Below, in pieces: positions 23,789 through 45,441 of a DNA stretch of 64,000 nucleotides. Under the pieces are notes generated by a model. It was not told the DNA's origin and did not search any database. It saw nothing but the letters and a program-made list of their open reading frames with translations. This DNA comes from a virus (Duplodnaviria; Heunggongvirae; Uroviricota; Caudoviricetes; Crassvirales). Positions within the stretch are counted from its first letter, which is position 1, and each line of letters begins with the position of its first letter. Location: the IMG/VR virus record IMGVR_UViG_3300035495_000018, positions 24,104 through 88,103 of that record; one strand, given 5' to 3'. A program made the translations under genes and the position numbers.

Positions 23789-24721
23789 TTAGTTCCAAGG
23801 AGAAGAACTTTCAGATGTGCTGAAAGGAAGTTCATCAGTAGGAGCTGCCTCTGTGGTAGGAGTAAATGTAGTTGCTTCTACAGAATACTCATGTACAGGA
23901 GCTGCTGAATACTCAGTATTAAGAGTCCTACCATTAGCTGCTGCATTTTGAATCATCTCTTGAAGCTCTTTATCAAGAGTGCTATAGTTATTAGCTGAGT
24001 TTCGCAAGAATTTCCTTGTATATACAGCTTGATAAAGTCTTCCAGTTTCTGCATCAGTTCTTACACCAAGCATAATTTTAACCTTATTAGTAGGTTGGAA
24101 GCCAAGTGCATCTTTAATCTCAGAGAAGTCTCCTTTGAAGATTTTGTCAAGGCTATCAAACCTACATTCACATTCCTCAGGTTTAACTTTAGTATTGGGG
24201 ACCATTTTCTTAAGATTGGCATCCCATGTAGTTACACTAGGAATACAAAGATAAGCCTTTACAAACTCCATGAGTTCTTCTTCTCCTACATAAGCAGGCC
24301 TATAGTCCTTATCAATGTCAGCAGGACCATTAGAATAAACAGGAATAGCTTTAGCTGCAAGCTCTTCAGCTGTAGCCCATGCAGTCCTACCATACTTATC
24401 AATTACTTGAGTTTTACCTGATGTAGCACCTACTCTAGGCCTATTTTGCAAGAACAAAGCCATAGTTACAAGAGGCATTTCAAAGCCTACTTTCTCTGTG
24501 TCAGGTTGGAATACAATTTGAATTCTTGCATTACCATACTCATTACCATCACTATCTGTTACTTTACCAAGATAATTAGGAGCTTCATCCAATGTAGTAT
24601 TAAACAAAGACTCATGTTCTGCTTTATCAGGATTTACTGCTTTAATAAATACAGGAGCTACACCTACATATCTTTTAAACTCCTGAGCTTCTTTTGATTC
24701 TGAACCTTTAGCAATTGCCAT
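23789..24721 (-). CDS. Putative ssDNA-binding protein
   Basis: 310 aa, acidic C-terminal tail ending DELPF like the SSB DDDIPF tail; position in replication module. Confidence 0.35.
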   Translation of the reverse strand: MAIAKGSESKEAQEFKRYVGVAPVFIKAVNPDKAEHESLFNTTLDEAPNYLGKVTDSDGNEYGNARIQIVFQPDTEKVGFEMPLVTMALFLQNRPRVGATSGKTQVIDKYGRTAWATAEELAAKAIPVYSNGPADIDKDYRPAYVGEEELMEFVKAYLCIPSVTTWDANLKKMVPNTKVKPEECECRFDSLDKIFKGDFSEIKDALGFQPTNKVKIMLGVRTDAETGRLYQAVYTRKFLRNSANNYSTLDKELQEMIQNAAANGRTLNTEYSAAPVHEYSVEATTFTPTTEAAPTDELPFSTSESSSPWN

Positions 24722-26364: not shown

Positions 26365-27470
26365 ATGTTAATATATAGGCTCTTTATCCTATATTTCTTC
26401 TTTTTTCAAAGAAGTGTCGGACTATATCTTCACTATAAAGTGTGGGATTCTCGTGTCTCTATTATATTCTACAAAGTAGTTTCAAGAGTTAGTCTCTGAA
26501 CCTTCAAATAGCTTTTACACTATAAGCTCGGCTGCTGATTGGCATATATCTCTACTTAGCTTTCCAGCAATTCTTCCCATTTATCCAGACCCAATTTATT
26601 ATTCAATTAATTTATATCTCATTGATTCACATATATAAGGCTTTATTATATTAGTAAATAGTTCTCTACTTTTTGCTAATATATAGATAGTAGGCTTATT
26701 TTTCATCATGTTTATAGATGAATGTATGCCAAATTTATCTAATAGAAGTTTCTGTAAAAATATTACATCTTCTATATTAAAACCTTCTGTATGTAAATAG
26801 TAAGAACAATTATTTTTAGAACCATCATCCATAAACCATATAGCTAAACTCAATGCTGTAAAATGCTCTTTTATATTTGTAGGTACTACTTTCTTATTAT
26901 TTGGATACCATAAATCCCTCCAATAATTAAAAGTAATACTTCTAGATATTCTTATATCACATCTACCATTACAAACACAAGTTCTATTTCCAATTACATG
27001 AGTAAAAGCTTCAGGATTCTCAGTATAATTAACTTTCAACCCTTCTTTCTCTAACAGAGATTTTAGATATAATGTATATTCCCTCTGTTTATAAGAATGT
27101 CCACAAGTAATTGTACTATTTAATATTTTAACTGCCTCACAATTTCTATTATATTTGGTTATAGAAGAATCTCCTAGAAGAGTACCTATTAATATAGATT
27201 TTGCTATATCTGTTAAAATAATTGGATGGTTCCTATCAGTATTATTTAATTTCTGTTGAGCTACTCTGTCTCTATAGATTCCTAACTTATTAAAATAATA
27301 CTGAATTGTTGATTTTGAACATCCTATCTTTTTAGCTATATCTTTATAAGACATTGTAGGATATTCTTTTAATATCTCCTTAATTTGTTCTTCTGTATTC
27401 ATAATTTTTTTCTATAGGTATTAATTATGATACAAAGATAATAAATAAAATTGAATTATGCAAACGTAAA
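26345..27470 (-). mobile_element. Group I intron carrying a LAGLIDADG homing endonuclease, inserted in the DnaB-like helicase gene (boundaries approximate)
   Basis: Conserved core elements on minus sense: R GTTCAGAGACTA (plus ~26470-26487) and S AAGATATAGTCC (plus ~26420-26431); splits helicase between motif H4 halves. Confidence 0.7.
26599..27402 (-). CDS. LAGLIDADG homing endonuclease with N-terminal HTH
   Basis: Two LAGLIDADG motifs: LIGTLLGDSS and LAIWFMDDGS. Confidence 0.8.
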   Translation of the reverse strand: MNTEEQIKEILKEYPTMSYKDIAKKIGCSKSTIQYYFNKLGIYRDRVAQQKLNNTDRNHPIILTDIAKSILIGTLLGDSSITKYNRNCEAVKILNSTITCGHSYKQREYTLYLKSLLEKEGLKVNYTENPEAFTHVIGNRTCVCNGRCDIRISRSITFNYWRDLWYPNNKKVVPTNIKEHFTALSLAIWFMDDGSKNNCSYYLHTEGFNIEDVIFLQKLLLDKFGIHSSINMMKNKPTIYILAKSRELFTNIIKPYICESMRYKLIE

Positions 27471-28261: not shown

Positions 28262-28845
28262 TCATCTTTAAGTGACTTCTCATGTCCTTCATTCTCTATA
28301 TATGCAGCAAGGTCTGAAACTTCTTCAATATATCCAACACCTTCAGAATCTACCTTCTTTTCATTCTTGCATATAAAGTATTTAAGTACTCTCATAAACT
28401 GGTATCTTCCATTAAAAGAACTAACATATCTCTGTGTAGCAGATATTAATTGTTCATCAGTGTACTTATTACCATAGAGCTTAAAGAACTTCTGTAGTTT
28501 AAGAGTAACATCTCTTATGTTTCCTCTCCAATATTGACAAGTACCTTCCTTTCTACCTTCTGGGAAGCATTCCATAAGGGATTTAGCTAGTTTATTCAGC
28601 CTTTCTCCTTTTGGAACACTTTCATCAGCAGTAAGCAAGGCACTATCACAAAGGTCATTCCATCGCTGAGTTACTAGTAGAGTTTTACCCATAAGGGTAT
28701 GTTCCTCTACTAGTACTTGTTTCTCCTTCATGTCCTTTACAAGCTCTTCTATACTTGCTCCAGTTCTTACAAGGAGAATCATTAGAGTCTCAGCAACAGA
28801 TAGATTAACCTTTTTGCAGGCATCCTCATCTATTGTAAACTTCAT
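28240..28845 (-). CDS. hypothetical protein
   Basis: 201-aa ORF. Confidence 0.45.
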   Translation of the reverse strand: MKFTIDEDACKKVNLSVAETLMILLVRTGASIEELVKDMKEKQVLVEEHTLMGKTLLVTQRWNDLCDSALLTADESVPKGERLNKLAKSLMECFPEGRKEGTCQYWRGNIRDVTLKLQKFFKLYGNKYTDEQLISATQRYVSSFNGRYQFMRVLKYFICKNEKKVDSEGVGYIEEVSDLAAYIENEGHEKSLKDDWMSTMV

Positions 28846-30023
28846 ATTTCTATTTCTTCTATTTTACTGATTGTAGTAACTAAGTCAGGATTGTAATCCT
28901 CAAGCATAATCTGAACTAACTCTACCTCTCTTGTATCCTGATAATAAGGAACAATGATAACAGGTTTAGGGTGTCTCAATAATCTACCCATCCTCTGTTT
29001 GATGATAGCTTCAGAACTGTTGAGGTTAGCATAGATGCCTACCTGACAATTAACAAGGTTCATACCCTCATTAAGCATATTGCAGGCTGTAATGTGGTCA
29101 ATCTTACCACTATTAAAGTCCTCCAGGTATTGCACTGAATCAGCATTCTTGCTATTAATGCAATACTCACCGAGCAACTCTGTTTGCTCTATGCTATTAC
29201 AGAATGTTAATGTCCTGTACTTAGTAAGAGTGGGGAGAAGTTGGTGCATATACTTGACTTTCTTATCACTTAACCACTTGAGTCTGTCTGCACACACTCT
29301 GAGCCACTTGTTCTTAGCTATTGGACTCTTTGTTCTAAGGTATGTCTTCTTCCAATACTCTATCTGACCACAAAGGTCACAGTAGTATTGTTGTTCAGTA
29401 CAATAAATCCTTACTGGATGAGTCTTTTGCTTAATGTAATTCCATCTTTCAGCCCAGCTGCACTCATAGGCTCTACCTTTAGCCTTAGGATTTTTCCATA
29501 TAGACTCAGTAGGCAAATCAGTTCTAAGCTTAAGAGGCCACAAGTAAACTCTTGGGTCAGGTAATATATCTTCATCAATGACATCTCTAAGGTCTCTCTT
29601 ATATGACACTAAGTCATTAAACAGACCATTGAGTTCATCTTTGAGATTCTTGGTTACAGTAGCAGAGCATAACACAGCATGCTTGATTTCAAAGTCCTGT
29701 AGAACCTCTCTGCATCTCTCTGACAAATGATGACACTCATCAAAGATTACAAAGTCCCACTTCTTTTGCATCTTAGGGAATGATACATAGGTTGTGTACA
29801 TTAAGCTGAGTTGGCAATCAGGCCACCACTTTATTATCTCCTCATGCCAATTTGCTTTATGTACATTCCTAGGCACTACTATAAGCATAGTTCCCTTATT
29901 GTGTGATATTTTCTTTACTACTTCAAGAGCCATTCGGCTTTTACCTGTGCCTGTGGCTAGTTCTAAGAGCCAGTTAGCTCCTTTAAGAGAGAGAATCTCT
30001 CTCAACATGTCTTCTCTTGTCAT
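28842..30023 (-). CDS. SF2 (DEAD/DEAH-like) helicase
   Basis: Walker A LATGTGKS, motif II DECH, C-terminal helicase motifs. Confidence 0.7.
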   Translation of the reverse strand: MTREDMLREILSLKGANWLLELATGTGKSRMALEVVKKISHNKGTMLIVVPRNVHKANWHEEIIKWWPDCQLSLMYTTYVSFPKMQKKWDFVIFDECHHLSERCREVLQDFEIKHAVLCSATVTKNLKDELNGLFNDLVSYKRDLRDVIDEDILPDPRVYLWPLKLRTDLPTESIWKNPKAKGRAYECSWAERWNYIKQKTHPVRIYCTEQQYYCDLCGQIEYWKKTYLRTKSPIAKNKWLRVCADRLKWLSDKKVKYMHQLLPTLTKYRTLTFCNSIEQTELLGEYCINSKNADSVQYLEDFNSGKIDHITACNMLNEGMNLVNCQVGIYANLNSSEAIIKQRMGRLLRHPKPVIIVPYYQDTREVELVQIMLEDYNPDLVTTISKIEEIEI

Positions 30024-30609: not shown

Positions 30610-30828
30610 TCATTTAGAAATATCCCTAAATAGTGTTGGAACCTGACCATAGACAGGTAACTTGCCATCCCACTTCTCAATCCACATTTTCTCTAGGATT
30701 TGAGGAGTAAGGGCTTGCTGTTTAAGCCTATTGGCTTCTGCTTCTGCTTGTGCTGCAACAATAAGTTTCTTTGCATTAGCTTCTGCAACAGCTACCTCAT
30801 TCTGAGCTTGCTGAGCTCTTTGTATCAT
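30610..30828 (-). CDS. SPFH/band-7 protein, 3' exon (C-terminal coiled-coil part)
   Basis: AQQAQNEVAVAEANAKKLIVAAQAEAEANR resembles HflK/C-type C-terminal region; in-line with the 198-aa SPFH N-terminal ORF. Confidence 0.45.
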   Translation of the reverse strand: MIQRAQQAQNEVAVAEANAKKLIVAAQAEAEANRLKQQALTPQILEKMWIEKWDGKLPVYGQVPTLFRDISK

Positions 30829-30834
30829 TTATCT

Positions 30835-31790
30835 TCACATAACCACGCAACTAGTTATGCAGTTCTCTTATGAACTTCTATACATTACTGCATAGATGAG
30901 ACTATATCTTCACCCTCAACATTACTTGGTAGGGGTTTCCCATTTCCACCTGCATTAGCTTCAGATGTACTCTCTTTCGAGATAGTCGTTGAACCTTTAC
31001 TAATACTAAAGTTATATATTCTCTCTACTTGCTTTAAGAAATCTTCCTTTTGTTGAGTATGTTTCATATAATTACATATAGGACAGCAAGGAACACAATT
31101 ATCCACTTGATAACCTATATTAGGATTTATCCTATCTATGCCATTATACCTTATTGTAGGCTGATGAGTGTCTCCTCTTTTAACGAGAAGCTCCTTACTT
31201 GCTTCTCTAGGCTCTGCTCCACAATAATGGCATGGTTGTGATATTATATGATTAAACTCTTCAAATGTTAAATTAAAACTATGCTTCCTTGAAGCAGCAT
31301 TAGCTTTACTCGACCTATAAAGAAAATTTCTCAATCCATATTGAGATTCGTTACTGAATTTAGTTTGAACTCTACTACCTAGTTTATGCAGGTAAGCTCC
31401 TCCATAGAGAAACTCCTTACCAGTGTTCACATTTCTGCATTTCCACTTGGTTACATAACATTTTTCAGTAGGTATTCTTACCTCTTCAATAACTTCATAC
31501 ACTCCATAGACCTGTCCTACATGGACAGGATATTTAAGTGCATTCTTTTTAATACTTCTGTAATTAGTACTTGGCTGCTGATTTTCCATAAATAATTCAT
31601 TTTGATAATACAAAGATAAGCAAAATCTTTGAATTATGCAAATGAATAAATATGGATGTTCCAGCAATTAAGGAAATTTATTATCTTGCCTTTTCAAGCA
31701 AGGAGACCGTACATTTCAGCCTCATTCTTAGCATTGACAGCCTTTACAATAGTCTCTGGATATTTAAGACCTGAAGTAAGCTGTTCAAGT
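30835..31790 (-). mobile_element. Group I intron carrying an HNH homing endonuclease, splitting the SPFH gene (boundaries approximate)
   Basis: S-like element AAGATATAGTCT (plus 30898-30909) and R-like CCAGAGACTAT (plus ~31747-31757) bracket the HNH ORF, consistent with an ORF in the P8 loop. Confidence 0.5.
30885..31667 (-). CDS. HNH homing endonuclease
   Basis: CHYCG...NGIDRINPNIGYQVDNCVPCCPICN (HNH with Zn-binding Cys pairs). Confidence 0.75.
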   Translation of the reverse strand: MLEHPYLFICIIQRFCLSLYYQNELFMENQQPSTNYRSIKKNALKYPVHVGQVYGVYEVIEEVRIPTEKCYVTKWKCRNVNTGKEFLYGGAYLHKLGSRVQTKFSNESQYGLRNFLYRSSKANAASRKHSFNLTFEEFNHIISQPCHYCGAEPREASKELLVKRGDTHQPTIRYNGIDRINPNIGYQVDNCVPCCPICNYMKHTQQKEDFLKQVERIYNFSISKGSTTISKESTSEANAGGNGKPLPSNVEGEDIVSSMQ

Positions 31791-32290
31791 TGGAAGTTTT
31801 CCCTCAGCAATGCAGCAGACAAGTACCTCTCAATGGCATTCTCAATAGAATCCCTATTACTTACAATGTAGTCTGTAGTGAAATTGTTGAGCTGAATTCT
31901 GAAAGCATCCTTTACATAGTTATAGAGTGTTCCATTAATGACCTCACTAAGCTCTTTCCTGTATTTCTTGAATACAATAGGAGACTTACCATCTACAATC
32001 TTCAATGAGATAGTTGGGTCAACAGTAAACTCTGAACCATCCTTTGCATTGATAGTAAAGGGTTCATAGTCTACAGTCTGTACAAATGTAGGATACTCAT
32101 ACACAGATTGTGTAAAAGGATTGTACCATACTGCACCTGTACACATAGAAATGTCACCTACTCCCTTGTCATCACCATAAAGGTTTACAAGGATACCTTC
32201 ATGTCCCGCATCTATTCTTTCATAGCCACAAGAGGACATCATAAACACAGCCATAAAGGCCATGAGAAAACCTAGAATCTTTGTCTTCAT
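31694..32290 (-). CDS. SPFH/band-7 (prohibitin-like) lipoprotein, 5' exon
   Basis: Signal peptide plus lipobox MSSCG; ERIDAGHEGILV SPFH N-terminal motif. Confidence 0.5.
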   Translation of the reverse strand: MKTKILGFLMAFMAVFMMSSCGYERIDAGHEGILVNLYGDDKGVGDISMCTGAVWYNPFTQSVYEYPTFVQTVDYEPFTINAKDGSEFTVDPTISLKIVDGKSPIVFKKYRKELSEVINGTLYNYVKDAFRIQLNNFTTDYIVSNRDSIENAIERYLSAALLRENFQLEQLTSGLKYPETIVKAVNAKNEAEMYGLLA

Positions 32291-33479: not shown

Positions 33480-33494
33480 ATAGATAGTCACTAA

Positions 33495-33568
33495 ATTCAC
33501 ATGATGGACTCGAACCATCTACTCTAAGCACCAAAAAACTTATGCTCTACCTAATGAGCTAATGTTAT
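33495..33568 (-). tRNA. Atypical tRNA: canonical D-arm (TA GCTC ATTAGGTA GAGC) and T-arm, but 8-10-nt anticodon loop (TTTTTTGGTG) and 5/7 acceptor pairs
   Basis: Manual fold. Confidence 0.4.
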
Positions 33569-33604
33569 TAGTATTGTAAGTGACTGTATATAACAAATGG
33601 CATG

Positions 33605-33724
33605 CGGGGATTATTGGATTTGAACCAATAACTCTGGATTGTATCCCAGAATAAATTGTTAAGTTGCTTTTGTAAGTGACCTTAGCCACTCAAACAATCT
33701 GCCTTTCCATAAGGCTGAATCCCC
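33605..33724 (-). ncRNA. Overlong (120 nt) tRNA-like RNA: perfect acceptor GGGGATT/AATCCCC, D-arm GCCT-TATGGAA-AGGC, T-arm ATTGG TTCAAAT CCAAT, ~47-nt insertion containing hairpin TCTGG(gatacaa)CCAGA and ACTTACAAA motif
   Basis: Manual fold. Confidence 0.45.
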
Positions 33725-42688: not shown

Positions 42689-42720
42689 TTTGCATAATTC
42701 AAAATTTTTTCGTATCTTTG
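42689..42720 (+). promoter_or_regulatory. Bacteroidota-type promoter driving the tRNA array (-33 TTTG 42689-42692; -7 TAtcTTTG 42713-42720)
   Basis: 20-nt spacing, immediately upstream of first tRNA. Confidence 0.5.
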
Positions 42721-42736
42721 CACCGTCAATTGAAAT

Positions 42737-42808
42737 TGCTGCTTGGTGTAAAGGCTAACACACCAGTTTTTGGCACTGGGTTTAGAAGTTCGAGTCTTCT
42801 AGCAGCAA
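42737..42808 (+). tRNA. tRNA-Gln (TTG)
   Basis: Manual cloverleaf: acceptor TGCTGCT/AGCAGCA, anticodon loop TTTTGGC, T-arm AGAAG TTCGAGT CTTCT. Confidence 0.7.
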
Positions 42809-42816
42809 CACTGAAT

Positions 42817-42888
42817 GCCTCCTTAGTATAAGGGATAATGCAATAGTCTTCTAAACTATCAATCTAGGTTCGAGTCCTAGAGGAGGTA
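42817..42888 (+). tRNA. tRNA-Arg (TCT)
   Basis: Anticodon stem ATAGT/ACTAT, loop CTTCTAA, T-arm CTAGG TTCGAGT CCTAG. Confidence 0.7.
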
Positions 42889-42974
42889 CTTGCGGAGATG
42901 CGTTTTGTTTTTGTTTGTTGTTTAAAGTGATTGAAAGGAACCCACCCAACCTGTGAAGGTGCAAGTGGGTAAAT

Positions 42975-43047
42975 GGAGCCATCATCTAACAGGTTAGGAT
43001 GCCACTCTTTCAAGGTGGTAATCTGGGTTCAATCCCCAGTGGCTCTA
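42975..43047 (+). tRNA. tRNA-Glu (TTC)
   Basis: Anticodon stem CCACT/GGTGG, loop CTTTCAA, T-arm CTGGG TTCAATC CCCAG. Confidence 0.7.
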
Positions 43048-43056
43048 CTAGATATT

Positions 43057-43127
43057 GGGTGTGTGGTGTAATGGTTAGCATACAACACTGTCACTGTTGA
43101 GGTTGGGGTTCAAGTCCCCCACATCCA
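43057..43127 (+). tRNA. tRNA-Asp (GTC); T-stem appears to be 4 bp
   Basis: Anticodon stem CAACA/TGTTG, loop CTGTCAC, T-loop TTCAAGT. Confidence 0.6.
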
Positions 43128-43132
43128 GCTAT

Positions 43133-43219
43133 GGAAGTTTGGCAGAGTGGCTTAATGCACTGGTCTTGAAAACCAGCAGCCTGTAACAGGGTTCATGGGT
43201 TCAAATCCCATAGCTTCCT
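43133..43219 (+). tRNA. tRNA-Ser (TGA), type II
   Basis: Anticodon stem CTGGT/ACCAG, loop CTTGAAA, long variable arm, T-arm ATGGG TTCAAAT CCCAT. Confidence 0.7.
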
Positions 43220-43224
43220 CAAAT

Positions 43225-43307
43225 GGAGGGTAAAGCAGTGAGGTACTGCATCTGCCTGCTAAGCATGATGTACCTTAGGGTATTTGGTTCGAGTCTAATG
43301 CCCTCCT
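43225..43307 (+). tRNA. tRNA-Ser (GCT), type II (fold less certain)
   Basis: Acceptor GGAGGGT/GCCCTCC, loop CTGCTAA, variable arm TACC-ttag-GGTA. Confidence 0.5.
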
Positions 43308-43317
43308 CAATATATTT

Positions 43318-43390
43318 AGGGAAGTGGTCTAGTGGTTATGATGCATGCTTTGGGAGCATGAGGTCGAGAGTTCGAGTCTCTCTTTCCCTA
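43318..43390 (+). tRNA. tRNA-Pro (TGG)
   Basis: Anticodon stem CATGC/GCATG, loop TTTGGGA, T-arm GAGAG TTCGAGT CTCTC. Confidence 0.7.
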
Positions 43391-43396
43391 CTATAT

Positions 43397-43469
43397 GGGC
43401 TTTTAGTTAAGATGGCTATAACAATAGATTTGCACTCTATAGTCCTGGGTTCGAGTCCCAGTTAGTCCA
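43397..43469 (+). tRNA. tRNA-Ala (TGC); U-U mismatches at acceptor 6-67 and 7-66
   Basis: D GTTA/TAAC, anticodon stem ATAGA/TCTAT, loop TTTGCAC, T-arm CTGGG TTCGAGT CCCAG. Confidence 0.6.
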
Positions 43470-43477
43470 CTAAATAT

Positions 43478-43551
43478 TCCTTCTTAGCTCAGTTGGTTAG
43501 AGCAGTTGACTGTTAATCAAAAGGTCGTAGGTTCAAGTCCTACAGGGGGAG
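43478..43551 (+). tRNA. tRNA-Asn (GTT)
   Basis: D GCTC-AGTTGGTTA-GAGC, loop CTGTTAA, T-arm GTAGG TTCAAGT CCTAC. Confidence 0.7.
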
Positions 43552-43683
43552 CATAATAAAGAGAATAGTACTAGTGTAAGACTCAACGTAACTTAGTGGC
43601 TTTACATTGTATGTAAGTCTAGCCCACTTGAGTGTCGTATAACTCACCTTAGCTACAGAGGATGGTCAATGGTAGCATTATTC

Positions 43684-43754
43684 ATTGGTGTGGTATAATG
43701 GTATTACTCAGGTCTCCAAAACCTGCAATGGGAGTTCGATTCTCTCCACCTTTG
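43684..43754 (+). tRNA. tRNA-Trp (CCA); two U-U acceptor mismatches
   Basis: Anticodon stem CAGGT/ACCTG, loop CTCCAAA, T-arm GGGAG TTCGATT CTCTC. Confidence 0.55.
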
Positions 43755-43760
43755 CTTATT

Positions 43761-43834
43761 GGGCAGTTAACTCAGTTGGTTAGAGTACATGACTGATATT
43801 CATGAGGTCCTAAGTTCGAGCCTTAGATTGCCCA
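43761..43834 (+). tRNA. tRNA-Ile (GAT)
   Basis: Acceptor GGGCAGT/ATTGCCC, anticodon stem CATGA/TCATG, loop CTGATAT, T-arm CTAAG TTCGAGC CTTAG. Confidence 0.75.
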
Positions 43835-43836
43835 CT

Positions 43837-43906
43837 GTGTTAGTAGCTTATAGGTAAAGTGCTTGACTGTGAATCAAGAGAAGAGGGTTCGAGTCCCCCT
43901 AACACC
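43837..43906 (+). tRNA. tRNA-His (GTG)
   Basis: Acceptor GTGTTAG/CTAACAC, D GCTT/AAGT, anticodon stem CTTGA/TCAAG, loop CTGTGAA. Confidence 0.65.
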
Positions 43907-43914
43907 CTATATAT

Positions 43915-43988
43915 TGCTGAGTAGCTTAGACAGTAGAAGCACCTGCCTTATAAGCAGGAGATAGTGGGAGCATTACCCATCTCAGCTA
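43915..43988 (+). tRNA. tRNA-like gene with anticodon TAT (Ile-AUA-type) and non-canonical T-arm GTGGG AGCATTA CCCAT
   Basis: Canonical acceptor/D/anticodon geometry (D GCTT/AAGC, anticodon stem CCTGC/GCAGG, loop CTTATAA) but T-loop lacks TTC. Confidence 0.5.
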
Positions 43989-44248
43989 CTACTCTATGAT
44001 AATACAATTTCTAAATTATATTATTATGAAAAGAGCATGTAAATTACTGAAGAAGGCAGCTAAATGGTACTTTAAACAGATGGAAAGTGCATACTTCTGT
44101 CCTTCGGGAATGATTCCTATGAATTACATAGGATAATTCCCACCCTTCTTTTTGTGATAGTATATAATGTAGAAACATAAGATATAAGAGGATGCTGGTA
44201 GCCACTTCCTAGGAGGAACCTCTATAAAAACAGCTGTAGGCTACACAA

Positions 44249-44321
44249 CTTCCTATAGCTCAATTGGCAGAGCTTCTGACTCTTAATCAGAGGGTTCAGG
44301 GTTCAAGTCCCTGTGGGAAGA
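44249..44321 (+). tRNA. tRNA-Lys (CTT)
   Basis: Acceptor CTTCCTA/TGGGAAG, loop CTCTTAA, T-arm CAGGG TTCAAGT CCCTG. Confidence 0.7.
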
Positions 44322-44328
44322 CTATTAT

Positions 44329-44400
44329 TCTCCTATAGCTGAATGGTAAAGCTGCACTCTTTTAAAGTGAGGATTCTAGGTTCGAGTCCTAGTGGGAGAA
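44329..44400 (+). tRNA. tRNA-Lys (TTT)
   Basis: Loop CTTTTAA, T-arm CTAGG TTCGAGT CCTAG. Confidence 0.65.
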
Positions 44401-44409
44401 CTATTATAT

Positions 44410-44491
44410 GGGAATACTTTAATGCGGAGAATTAGTGCAGTCTGTAAAACTGTTGCCTCTGGCTAAATTGGTTCGACTCCATTTATTCCCA
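44410..44491 (+). tRNA. tRNA-Tyr (GTA), type II
   Basis: Perfect acceptor GGGAATA/TATTCCC, anticodon stem GCAGT/ACTGT, loop CTGTAAA, long variable arm. Confidence 0.65.
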
Positions 44492-44499
44492 CATTGATT

Positions 44500-44573
44500 G
44501 GAGACATAGCAAAGATGGTCTATGCGGAGGACTGAAAATCCTAAGATGTGAGGTTCGATACCCACTGTCTCCA
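44500..44573 (+). tRNA. tRNA-Phe (GAA); T-stem has a bulged A
   Basis: Perfect acceptor GGAGACA/TGTCTCC, loop CTGAAAA. Confidence 0.6.
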
Positions 44574-44577
44574 CTAT

Positions 44578-44665
44578 GCCCAAGTGGTGGAATAGGTAGA
44601 CACAATAGCCTTAGAAGCTATGTCGAAGTAATAGTAGAGTGTGGGTTCGAGTCCCACCTTGGGTA
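44578..44665 (+). tRNA. tRNA-Leu (TAG), type II
   Basis: Anticodon stem ATAGC/GCTAT, loop CTTAGAA, long variable arm, T-arm GTGGG TTCGAGT CCCAC. Confidence 0.7.
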
Positions 44666-44667
44666 CT

Positions 44668-45009
44668 ATGGAAAAGAAGTTTATATTCTATTTCAATGGG
44701 ATGATAGTCAAAGCTTCTATATCAGAATACAATACTAATATAGAAGATTCTTATAGATTCAAGAACATATCCAGTATGAGGGATATTCTGAGAGTGATAA
44801 GAGCTGAATCCCTAAATGATTCTACTGAGAGAGCAATAAGCAAAAGGTCTCTATTCAGTATGGTTAATGAATGGAGGGTACATAATTTATTGTATGCCCT
44901 TGGCATTAAGAGAGATAGGGTTAAAAGTGTTGATTTAAATATAGGTCAACCTTGGTATATTAAGGCAGTGTACACCCTTCTATCACCATTTTATTTGCAC
45001 TTTGTGTGA
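44668..45009 (+). CDS. hypothetical protein (start moved downstream of tRNA-Leu)
   Basis: ORF-track start 44641 lies inside the tRNA; in-frame ATG at 44668 (MEKKF...). Confidence 0.4.
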   Translation: MEKKFIFYFNGMIVKASISEYNTNIEDSYRFKNISSMRDILRVIRAESLNDSTERAISKRSLFSMVNEWRVHNLLYALGIKRDRVKSVDLNIGQPWYIKAVYTLLSPFYLHFV

Positions 45010-45026
45010 AAATACTTATCAATTTA

Positions 45027-45058
45027 TTTGGTAGTATGAAATATTTTACTTAACTTTG
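45027..45058 (+). promoter_or_regulatory. Bacteroidota-type promoter (-33 TTTG 45027-45030; -7 TAacTTTG 45051-45058)
   Basis: Consensus spacing, 22 nt upstream of 45080 ATG. Confidence 0.45.
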
Positions 45059-45079
45059 TAGCATCAAAAGAAAACAAGT

Positions 45080-45277
45080 ATGGCGAAGAATTTATCAAGC
45101 ATGGAGAAGAAGTGGCAGGCTGAAGAGGATGCTAGGACAATGGCTAGATACCAAGAGATAATGTCCGACTCTAAAAGAAAATCAGCAGCCATTAAGCAAG
45201 CCAGAACAGAAGCTTCAGCATTAGAGAAGAGGGCTAATGCAATGAAACTAGCTGCTGGTGGAAAGCTAAAGAAATAA
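45080..45277 (+). CDS. Small hypothetical protein (K/A-rich)
   Basis: 65-aa ORF behind promoter. Confidence 0.45.
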   Translation: MAKNLSSMEKKWQAEEDARTMARYQEIMSDSKRKSAAIKQARTEASALEKRANAMKLAAGGKLKK

Positions 45278-45285
45278 TAAGTGAT

Positions 45286-45358
45286 GCTTCCTTAGTTCAA
45301 TTGGCAGAGCAACTGTTTTGTAATCAGTCTGTTGTAAGTTCGAGTCTTACAGGAAGCT
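45286..45358 (+). tRNA. tRNA-Thr (TGT)
   Basis: Perfect acceptor GCTTCCT/AGGAAGC, loop TTTGTAA, T-arm GTAAG TTCGAGT CTTAC. Confidence 0.75.
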
Positions 45359-45363
45359 CTAAT

Positions 45364-45435
45364 GCAGGATTAGTATAAAGGTTATTATGCCAGTATTCCA
45401 AACTGGATATGAGGGTCCAATTCCCTCATCCTGCT
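45364..45435 (+). tRNA. tRNA-Gly (TCC)
   Basis: Perfect acceptor GCAGGAT/ATCCTGC, anticodon stem CCAGT/ACTGG, loop ATTCCAA, T-arm GAGGG TCCAATT CCCTC. Confidence 0.7.
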
Positions 45436-45441
45436 CAATTA

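Follow-up and report, generated by a model that had tools for sequence, protein, structure and literature searches.

A group I intron of subgroup IA2 type carrying a PacI-like endonuclease gene in a predicted SPFH lipoprotein gene of a crAss-like phage

Introduction

On the minus strand of a 64,000-nucleotide stretch of a crAss-like phage (Crassvirales; IMG/VR record IMGVR_UViG_3300035495_000018, positions 24,104 to 88,103), here called the window, two pieces of an SPFH/Band-7 protein gene are separated by a gene for a predicted endonuclease. The listing of open reading frames (ORFs) from 32290 to 30610 gave three frames, namely a 198-aa ORF (32290..31694), a 260-aa open frame (31667..30885) and a 72-aa ORF (30828..30610). 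The question raised by this locus is whether the SPFH gene was broken by the endonuclease gene or is one gene split by an intron. A preliminary description had proposed a lipoprotein gene split by a group I intron with an HNH endonuclease ORF. We conclude that the predicted SPFH lipoprotein gene is very probably split by a real group I intron of subgroup IA2 type, which carries a gene for a PacI-like HNH endonuclease. This proposal was borne out by intronless alleles, splice-site rules, covariation and a compensatory change between haplotypes.

Results

The two SPFH pieces are collinear with uninterrupted homologues

The nearest database relatives of the window phage were members of the Steigviridae/Asinivirinae (IAS virus, cr85_1 and PhiCrAssBcn1-3), with 73-78% nucleotide identity in the SPFH gene, and no close genome was found in the phage collection searched. 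BLAST alignments to the relatives fell into two pieces, in which 1.6 kb of the window corresponded to only ~700-790 nt of the subject. The annotated SPFH/prohibitin-family genes of IAS virus, cr85_1 and PhiCrAssBcn1 were uninterrupted, and the best 80 IMG/VR relatives were all intronless, at up to 91% amino-acid identity.

The 198-aa ORF matched Pfam Band_7 (E 9.6e-18), and the 72-aa ORF alone had no Pfam match. On the phrog_200 profile, which is labelled 'lipoprotein', the two ORFs covered adjoining positions (80-273 and 274-349). When the exons were joined, they encoded a 262-aa SPFH protein that scored 70.1 bits against Band_7 (PF01145; curated threshold 23.6), and the match crossed the junction (residues 25-207, profile 2-174 of 176). 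The joined protein aligned with the PhiCrAssBcn2 homologue in a single alignment from 1 to 262, at 100% coverage and 75% identity. Its N-terminus reads MKTKILGFLMAFMAVFMMSS-C, a putative lipoprotein signal peptide that runs into ...MMSSC, and the cysteine is kept in relatives (..TSC, ..SSC). The earlier assignments of the 198-aa ORF to an SPFH protein and of the 72-aa ORF to its C-terminus were thus confirmed.

The boundaries follow group I splice-site rules

The alignment with intronless relatives placed the end of exon 1 at 31718, the intron at 31717-30826 and the start of exon 2 at 30825. At the junction the window reads ...VNAKNEA|IQRAQQ..., and IAS virus, cr85_1 and PhiCrAssBcn1 read ...VNAKN(A/K)A|(I/V)Q..., so that the insertion point lies between the codons for Ala191 and Ile192. 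The predicted splice junction is GAGGCU|AUACAA, with exon 1 ending in AAGAAUGAGGCU and exon 2 beginning with AUACAAAGAGCU. Protein homology permits a shift of 1 nt that still encodes Ala, and the register used here was picked by the U/G rule. In this register the final U of exon 1 (U31718) stands opposite G31708 as a U.G wobble in a P1 of 6 bp, and the intron terminates in G30826. Since this G (30826) is also the G of the ATG of the 72-aa ORF, that ATG does not serve as a start codon. The exon 1 ORF runs 8 codons into the intron, to a UGA in P2.

The intervening sequence contains a group I core

A covariance search of the minus strand, which had been suggested as a check, gave an Rfam Intron_gpI (RF00028) match at 30878-31110 (E 1.6e-9); its score of 44.9 bits lay under the gathering score of 50. 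The model forced P1-P6 into the ORF sequence of the intron. ORF-less relatives scored 87-98 bits, and the ORF-bearing intron of E. coli phage Bas93, spliced according to its annotation, scored 43.9; the sub-threshold score is therefore attributed to the presence of the ORF. At gathering thresholds, Rfam found only tRNAs in the whole window, and a second intron was not found. BLAST of the 3' core returned many phage introns, including the 'Intron_gpI' features of Twort-like Staphylococcus phages and the DNA polymerase I gene of Bas93, annotated as a joined coding sequence (CDS) with an internal 'endonuclease VII'.

A covariance model, R1, was built from the window core alone. It found 12 introns in the loci of other phages (E 1e-9 to 1e-17) and only one match in the window. 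In the R1-fitted alignment of the 3' half, 93.1% of cells were paired, compared with 26-52% when the partners were slid, and 18 of 29 pairs had changed on both sides. Since this alignment was fitted to the model, the test was repeated on a plain, structure-blind MAFFT alignment of 11 introns, from which the ORF loops had been cut out and in which the P3 pseudoknot was included. Here, the 71 named pairs were 86.7% paired, compared with 38-47% when slid. Changes on both sides were seen in 42 pairs, and none of 500 shuffles reached the observed covariation score. Compensatory changes occurred in P3, P4, P5, P6a, P7.1 and P7.2; in P7.1 and P7.2 together, all but one of nine pairs had changed on both sides, and GTAC was nearly invariant.

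The conserved P, Q, R and S elements were found in the correct order, with many positions invariant across the 11 aligned introns. In the minimum free energy (MFE) fold of the ORF-deleted intron, all non-pseudoknot helices were recovered. The two strands of P5 are separated by an extension of ~60 nt, which folds as a hairpin continuous with P5 in MFE folds, and the P4-P5 domain spans 31575..31667 (-). For the 3' strand of P3, the block GGAAAU at 30947-30942 was tried and rejected; it clashed with P7.2, and the relatives point to the next block, GGGAAA at 30941-30936. P8 was 88-90% paired in the model-fitted alignment. Subgroup IA2 is recognized by P7.1 and P7.2 joined by G-U-A (PMC3428280), and the window intron has P7.1, GUA and P7.2 between P7 and the 3' strand of P3. 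The coordinates of all features are collected in Table 1.

Two structural details of the preliminary description had to be revised. The S element that it named (AAGAUAUAGUC) is real and forms the 3' strand of P7. Its 'R-like' element (CCAGAGACTAT, 31747-31757) lies inside exon 1, where it encodes the conserved YPETIV and is present in intronless homologues. R and S do not bracket the endonuclease ORF as had been stated, because the true R element is located within the 3' end of that frame. The ORF had also been placed in the P8 loop; it sits in the loop of P6a (L6a), and P8 is a short hairpin.

Table 1. Predicted features of the split SPFH gene and its intron (all on the minus strand; the last column gives pairing in the structure-blind MAFFT alignment of 11 introns)
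Feature	Position	Description	Basis	Pairing
SPFH/Band-7 lipoprotein exon 1	31718..32290	191 codons, ends AAU GAG GCU	Pfam Band_7; phrog_200; intronless-homologue alignment	
Group I intron, IA2-type	30826..31717	892 nt, begins GAAAUGUAC, ends GAUAAAUG	homologue alignment; Rfam; core covariance model	
SPFH exon 2	30610..30825	71 codons plus stop, begins AUA CAA AGA (IQR)	phrog_200	
Intron ORF	30885..31589	234 aa, PacI-like HNH (His-Me finger)	PHROG; family profile against PacI	
Promoter-like motif	31611..31642	Bacteroides-type, TTTGCATAATTCAA-N10-TATCTTTG, inside P5 extension	motif recurrence; consensus fit	
P1	31703..31723	exon GAGGCU 31723-31718 with guide GGUCUC 31708-31703	sequence reading; MFE fold of ORF-deleted intron	
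P2	31685..31702	hairpin CUUGC-UUGAAAAG-GCAAG, holds UGA of exon 1 read-through	MFE fold	36%
P3	31676-31671, 30941-30936	UUUCCU with GGGAAA, pseudoknot with P7	MAFFT covariation	98.5%; 5/6 pairs changed on both sides
P4	31667-31662, 31580-31575	UUGCUG with CAGCAG (P and Q elements)	covariation; MFE fold	98.5%; compensatory changes
P5	31656-31651, 31590-31585	UCCAUA with UAUGGA	covariation; MFE fold	91%; compensatory changes
P6	31574-31573, 30995-30994	CC with GG	covariation alignment	100%
P6a	31569-31563, 31004-30998	UACUAAU with AUUAGUA	covariation alignment	97%; 7/7 pairs covary
P7	30987-30982, 30905-30900	GACUAU with AUAGUC	alignment	97%; invariant
P7.1	30981-30972		sequence reading	93.5%
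GUA linker	30970-30968		sequence reading	
P7.2	30967-30947		sequence reading	95.5%
P8	30935-30913	hairpin	model-fitted alignment	59%
P9	30896-30877		MFE folds	87%
P9.1	30876-30861		MFE folds	92%
P9.2	30859-30838		MFE folds	
P10	31713-31710, 30824-30821	4 bp; intron UGUA can pair with exon 2 UACA	sequence reading	
P element	31669-31659	AAUUGCUGGAA	sequence reading	
Q element	31583-31574	AAUCAGCAGC	sequence reading	
R element	30995-30982	GGUUCAACGACUAU	sequence reading	
S element	30910-30900	AAGAUAUAGUC, 3' strand of P7	sequence reading; Rfam	

From this anatomy we infer a conventional splicing pathway. The intron in the pre-mRNA would fold into P1-P10 with the P3/P7 pseudoknot, guanosine would attack after the final U of exon 1, and the exons would then be ligated after the terminal G. 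The spliced mRNA would encode the 262-aa SPFH protein, collinear with the intronless homologues.

A compensatory change between two haplotypes

The split arrangement was present on 13 contigs from several samples. It occurred there in two haplotypes of the window phage, 99.4% identical, in both of which both exons were intact; no disabling mutations were seen in the exons. Within the intron, the haplotypes differed at three positions. Intron positions 738 (U->C) and 745 (A->G) pair in P7.1, as U-A in the window and as C-G in the second haplotype. These two changes produce S204P and E206G in the endonuclease, the sole amino-acid differences in the ORF between the haplotypes. This pattern suggests that it is the RNA helix, and not the tail of the protein, that is under selection here.

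The intron ORF encodes a PacI-like endonuclease

An HNH-type ORF between the SPFH halves had been noted in the preliminary description, and the ORF matched HNH and endonuclease VII families (phrog_1035, E 2.6e-17; phrog_3118, E 1.5e-13). Independent gene calls also gave an intron ORF of 234 aa. The start codon was set at AUG 31589, because in the second haplotype the frame upstream of it is closed by a 1-nt indel at ~31597; starts at 31598 or at TTG 31667 were rejected for the same indel. No NCBIfam match was obtained for the endonuclease.

Searched alone against solved structures, the endonuclease had PacI as its best match, with an E of 0.42 that is not significant. When five relatives (32-35% identity) were combined in a profile, PacI (3ldy) was the one significant match (E 7.1e-7), over CxYCG...CN..K. 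The residues invariant in the five relatives were CxYC, G-I-D-R, Y160, N164, CC, CxxCN and K, and the cysteines C120, C123, C168/C169 and C172 were likewise invariant. In the alignment to 3ldy, GIDRINPNIGY of the window stood opposite GVDRSDSFEGY of PacI. In PacI, which belongs to His-Me finger group 20, a loop Tyr replaces the catalytic His, and Asp-Arg stands for Asp-His (PMC5714182, PMC3384342). The ORF was filed under this His-less PacI-like branch and not under canonical HNH, because Asp-Arg is invariant and its score against Pfam HNH stayed under the cut-off.

The ORF runs through much of the ribozyme. It begins with an AUG in the 3' strand of P5 and passes through the 3' strand of P4 (P4'), P6 and L6a, which holds the ORF body. 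Its last ~38 codons are encoded by P6a'-P7-P7.1-P7.2-P3'-P8-P7', and the UAA stop lies in the P9 loop. At the ORF site, the ORF-less relatives cr116_1 and bajarodcaudo virus 1 have GCCAAG, a short hairpin and AAGGU(G/C)CAACGACUAU; at the same place the window has GCCAAG-UACUAAU, the ORF and AUUAGUA-AAGGUUCAACGACUAU. The ORFs of cr50_1, cr53_1, L007, L010 and Bas93 cross the core in the frame of the window (...SSTTI...), and those of the core-crossing relatives end either in P7.2-P8 or where P7' begins. Overlap of ORF and core and location in P6a have been described for the introns of I-PfoP3I and PhiI/W31 (PMC3428280).

Other L6a ORFs of the same intron family encode an endonuclease VII-like HNH (Asp-His) in Bas93 and a GIY-YIG-like enzyme in Dulem virus 41, and such differing endonuclease types are the usual picture of independent invasions. 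The ORF of Bas93 (L102 1454-2162) reads the core in the same frame as the window; that of Dulem virus 41 (L098 1141-2171) stops short of the core, in which a short frame of its own is open.

A Bacteroides-type promoter-like motif in the P5 extension

A promoter-like motif in the P5 extension ends 22 nt before the endonuclease AUG. The Bacteroides sigma-ABfr consensus consists of TTTG at ~-33 and TAnnTTTG at -7 (PMC7366714), and the motif fits this TTTG / TAnnTTTG pattern. The generic promoter pattern occurred 7 times in the window, compared with 1.25 expected. The 22 specified bases recurred exactly at 27464-27433(-) and 42689-42720(+), for which the chance expectation is 0.02, and a third copy with 3 mismatches was present at 17525-17494(-). 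The copy at 27464-27433(-) lies 31 nt before the ORF 27402..26599, and that at 42689-42720(+) lies 17 nt before a tRNA array that starts at 42737. Among the copies, no similarity was found beyond the motif. The further copies are probably host-type (sigma-ABfr-like) promoters of the phage. A sigma-70 promoter scan gave no excess (6, compared with 8±3 expected) and is uninformative for a phage of Bacteroidota.

The motifs suggest how the endonuclease could be expressed. Transcription of the ORF would probably start from the Bacteroides-type promoter in the P5 extension. An internal transcript of this kind would not contain the 5' strand of P5, so the AUG would be unpaired; in the full-length precursor, the AUG would be paired within P5.

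Mobility and the target site

The intronless site GCTAAGAATGAGGCT|ATACAAAGAGC (GTCAATGCTAAGAATGAGGCT|ATACAAAGAGCTCAG) spans the insertion point. In 28 distinct intronless relatives, the consensus matched 52 of the 60 bases flanking it, and because of this conservation plausible homing targets exist. The endonuclease would presumably cut or nick this conserved site in the intronless SPFH genes of co-infecting relatives and thereby spread the intron by homing.

Related units of endonuclease and intron were present in cr53_1's gene for DNA polymerase and in an AAA/nucleotide-binding gene of cr50_1, and cr118_1 carries an ORF-decayed copy of the cr53_1 polymerase intron. The exact core pattern was found in only one IMG/VR contig, and the pattern of the intron 5' end had no match in metagenome contigs, so that further copies were not found.

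The polymerase intron of cr53_1 (L005 2072-2844) has an intact PacI-like endonuclease ORF, and the same intron in cr118_1 (L099 1813-2180) has only a ~78-nt remnant in the P6a loop. This pair shows a stage in the life cycle of the intron at which the ORF is lost. In both records the polymerase is annotated as two separate CDSs. ORF-less group I introns were also observed in bajarodcaudo virus 1 (L101 1827-2119; Rfam 86.7 bits) and cr116_1 (L100 ~1915-2160), just upstream of an anaerobic ribonucleotide reductase region and unannotated in the records.

Weighing the alternative explanations

Several observations count against a spliced and mobile intron with an active endonuclease. The Rfam score is below the gathering threshold, and P2 and P8 are poorly paired in the MAFFT alignment, in which they are variable and poorly aligned. 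Splicing is deduced from sequence, and the putative internal promoter is a motif match. The canonical catalytic His of the endonuclease is absent (Asp-Arg), and Pfam HNH (PF01844) scored 9.5 bits against a cut-off of 21.4; activity of the predicted enzyme would follow by analogy with PacI. Neither IMG/VR nor a search of metagenome contigs with the spliced-junction pattern contained an intron-minus allele of the same species. A co-conversion tract was absent, and divergence from the five closest intronless relatives was even along the gene.

If a free-standing HNH gene with its own promoter had broken the SPFH gene, no splicing would occur, and the SPFH pieces would be a pseudogene or two products. 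The separate 198-, 234- and 72-aa ORFs given by gene callers fit this explanation, as do the low Rfam score and the promoter-like motif before the ORF. However, a complete covarying ribozyme flanks the ORF, and the long-range helices P3, P4 and P6a span it. The boundaries obey the U and terminal-G rules and restore the reading frame exactly, both exons are intact in both of the 99.4%-identical haplotypes, and P7.1 was kept by a compensatory change that cost two amino-acid changes. The preliminary description had held that a promoter and a terminator of its own would mark the HNH gene as free-standing. A promoter-like motif does precede the ORF, inside the P5 extension of the ribozyme, and no terminator was found after the ORF, in a scan that is uninformative for a phage of Bacteroidota. 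An own promoter would not discriminate against an intron, by analogy with known phage introns that allow a promoter inside the ribozyme. We find a free-standing gene scarcely credible. It is also very improbable that the ribozyme is decayed and splicing-dead, or dependent on a host or phage factor, with an SPFH gene that is non-functional or poorly expressed. The P5 extension does carry an unusual insert, the promoter motif, compared with the short P5 of close relatives. Against such decay, every core helix is intact, the extension prolongs P5 as an unbroken hairpin, the compensatory change in P7.1 is a sign that the structure is still under selection, and the exons are free of disabling mutations.

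The group I intron could also be real and its endonuclease no longer an active homing enzyme (inactive, a maturase or in another role), with vertical inheritance only. The Arg in place of the canonical HNH His and the score under the Pfam cut-off would agree with this, and so would the missing co-conversion tract and the loss of the ORF from the cr118_1 polymerase intron compared with that of cr53_1. Furthermore, only intron-plus alleles of the species were seen, and none in other SPFH genes. On the other side, the haplotypes share an intact ORF that differs only by two RNA-driven changes, and Asp-Arg with Tyr is the configuration of active PacI (PMC5714182). The invariance of Asp-Arg and Tyr in five relatives at 32-35% identity argues for purifying selection, and the presence of related units in different genes of different Crassvirales implies past mobility. 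An endonuclease without a homing role is considered unlikely.

Comparison with known systems

Introns of phage DNA polymerase genes with an HNH gene in P6a are known from the T7-like phages PhiI/W31 (I-TslI) and the cyanophage Pf-WMP3 (I-PfoP3I), both of subgroup IA2 (PMC3428280). The window intron shares with them P7.1/P7.2 with the G-U-A linker, an ORF at P6a that contributes to P6a', P6, P7, P7.1 and P7.2, a 4-bp P10, the U.G wobble at the 5' splice site and the terminal G. It differs in its host gene, which is an SPFH lipoprotein gene in a crAss-like phage infecting Bacteroidota and not a DNA polymerase gene, and in its enzyme, which is PacI-like (Asp-Arg with Tyr) whereas theirs are canonical His-Asn-His. 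Its ORF is longer at both ends, beginning upstream within the P5 3' strand and ending only in the P9 loop. P2 is present in the window intron and absent in Pf-WMP3. Splicing and nicking have been demonstrated for Pf-WMP3, whereas the window intron is known from its sequence alone. In addition, 54 nt of the window core were 90.7% identical to Salmonella phage Vi06, at a locus of DNA polymerase and endonuclease.

In crAss-like phages, group I introns have been reported mainly in core genes (MCP, PolB and primase, as well as ATP_43b) of the Delta/Suoliviridae and Zeta groups (Yutin et al. 2021, PMC7886860). The introns of cr53_1, cr118_1 and cr50_1 belong to the same ribozyme family as the window intron (R1 81-94 bits), and the endonuclease family is shared, with 33-35% identity and the same frame through the core (...SSTTI...). 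In contrast to theirs, the host gene in the window is an accessory membrane-protein gene, and the closest relatives of its phage are Steigviridae (beta group). The P5 extension with its promoter motif is specific to the window intron in this comparison. The multi-intron gene of a Twort-like Staphylococcus phage (PV017447) has the same core family (R1 57-59, Rfam 87-98 bits), and its introns were used as covariation partners. Unlike the window intron, they are ORF-less, ~230 nt long and without P9.1 and P9.2, in phages of Gram-positive hosts.

The motif CxYCG...G(I/V)DR...GY..N..C.(I/V)CN..K, with two Cys pairs, Asp-Arg and Tyr, is common to the window ORF and PacI (PDB 3ldy/3m7k). PacI itself, a bacterial restriction enzyme of 142 aa, is homodimeric and cuts TTAATTAA. 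The window ORF differs from it by an extra N-terminal region of ~115 aa, the RNA-dictated tail and its presumed homing role.

The td intron of phage T4 offers the nearest parallel for expression. It reportedly belongs to subgroup IA2, with the I-TevI ORF looped out of P6a, and is said to have its own promoter inside the intron and a translation start masked by RNA structure in the full-length precursor. I-TevI is reportedly a GIY-YIG enzyme encoded entirely within the loop, with late or middle T4 promoters and a regulation that is said to have been demonstrated. The P6a ORF and the internal-promoter scheme of the window are parallel to this; the window promoter is a host-type motif, and its scheme is a proposal drawn from motifs. 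We advance only tentatively, and with more doubt than conviction, the combination of a hitherto uncharacterized PacI-type homing family with Tyr for His in Crassvirales introns, a host sigma-ABfr-type promoter in the P5 extension that frees the AUG, and a tail of ~38 codons dictated by the catalytic RNA and not by the function of the protein, to which the compensatory S204P/E206G change points.

Neighbouring genes and other observations

An SPFH protein had been called unusual for a phage. This was contradicted by tblastn, which among 50,697 phage records gave 715 with SPFH homologues, and by the presence of such homologues in all close Crassvirales relatives examined. The phages concerned include Twort-like Staphylococcus phages, Pseudomonas, Bacillus, Klebsiella and Erwinia phages, and Lak phages. 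The gene order common to the relatives is a helicase or 'HKD nuclease', a glucosaminidase that is membrane-anchored at its N-terminus, SPFH and a 62-aa protein whose two hydrophobic segments apparently span the membrane. The role in lysis or membrane remodelling raised in the preliminary description would rest on this conserved order, which is compatible with an envelope or lysis-related cassette. The 393-aa neighbour at 28842-30023(-) has helicase domains (Pfam Helicase_C; ResIII weak), and the corresponding genes of related phages bear the label 'putative HKD family nuclease' in their records.

Three IMG/VR crAss-like contigs (L067 2501-3532, L071 300-1331 and L078 2501-3577) had longer SPFH matches and were considered as carriers of ORF-less introns. 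Their genes were uninterrupted, and the extra length was a duplicated C-terminal fragment: a second copy of the last 16 SPFH residues, 87.5% identical to the window C-terminus, lies ~200-250 nt downstream of the intact gene. This repeat may have been left behind by an insertion at the 3' end of the gene.

The remaining observations concern tRNAs. ARAGORN called a tRNA with the 4-base anticodon tttg at 33494-33569(-), and Rfam scored a tRNA of 40.8 bits in the same region; this could be a frameshift-suppressor-like or otherwise odd tRNA. An Rfam tRNA match of 120 nt at 33605-33724(-) (35.8 bits), which ARAGORN did not call, may be a tRNA with an insertion. Beside these tRNAs, a near-identical contig (L006:1118-1234, ~33479-33363 of the window) had a weak tmRNA-model match (27.5 bits, compared with a gathering score of 47; E 3.3e-7). 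The array at 42737-45436(+) comprises 17-19 tRNA genes for many amino acids. No suppressor anticodon was seen in this array, and the standard genetic code therefore appears to apply in the window.

Significance

As a selfish element, the window intron is an unremarkable representative of a type already known, and the understanding of group I introns is unchanged by it. It has consequences for annotation: the 198-, 234- and 72-aa ORFs called on all 13 contigs should read as a spliced 262-aa SPFH gene and an intron ORF, and a similar problem affects cr50_1, cr53_1, cr118_1, cr116_1, bajarodcaudo virus 1 and Dulem virus 41. The intron also presents a compact natural case of RNA and protein constraints that collide in one sequence, and it suggests a homing role for PacI-like nucleases. 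The range of group I introns in crAss-like phages extends beyond the reported core genes and beyond the Delta and Zeta groups, since the window case lies in an accessory gene of a Steigviridae-like phage.

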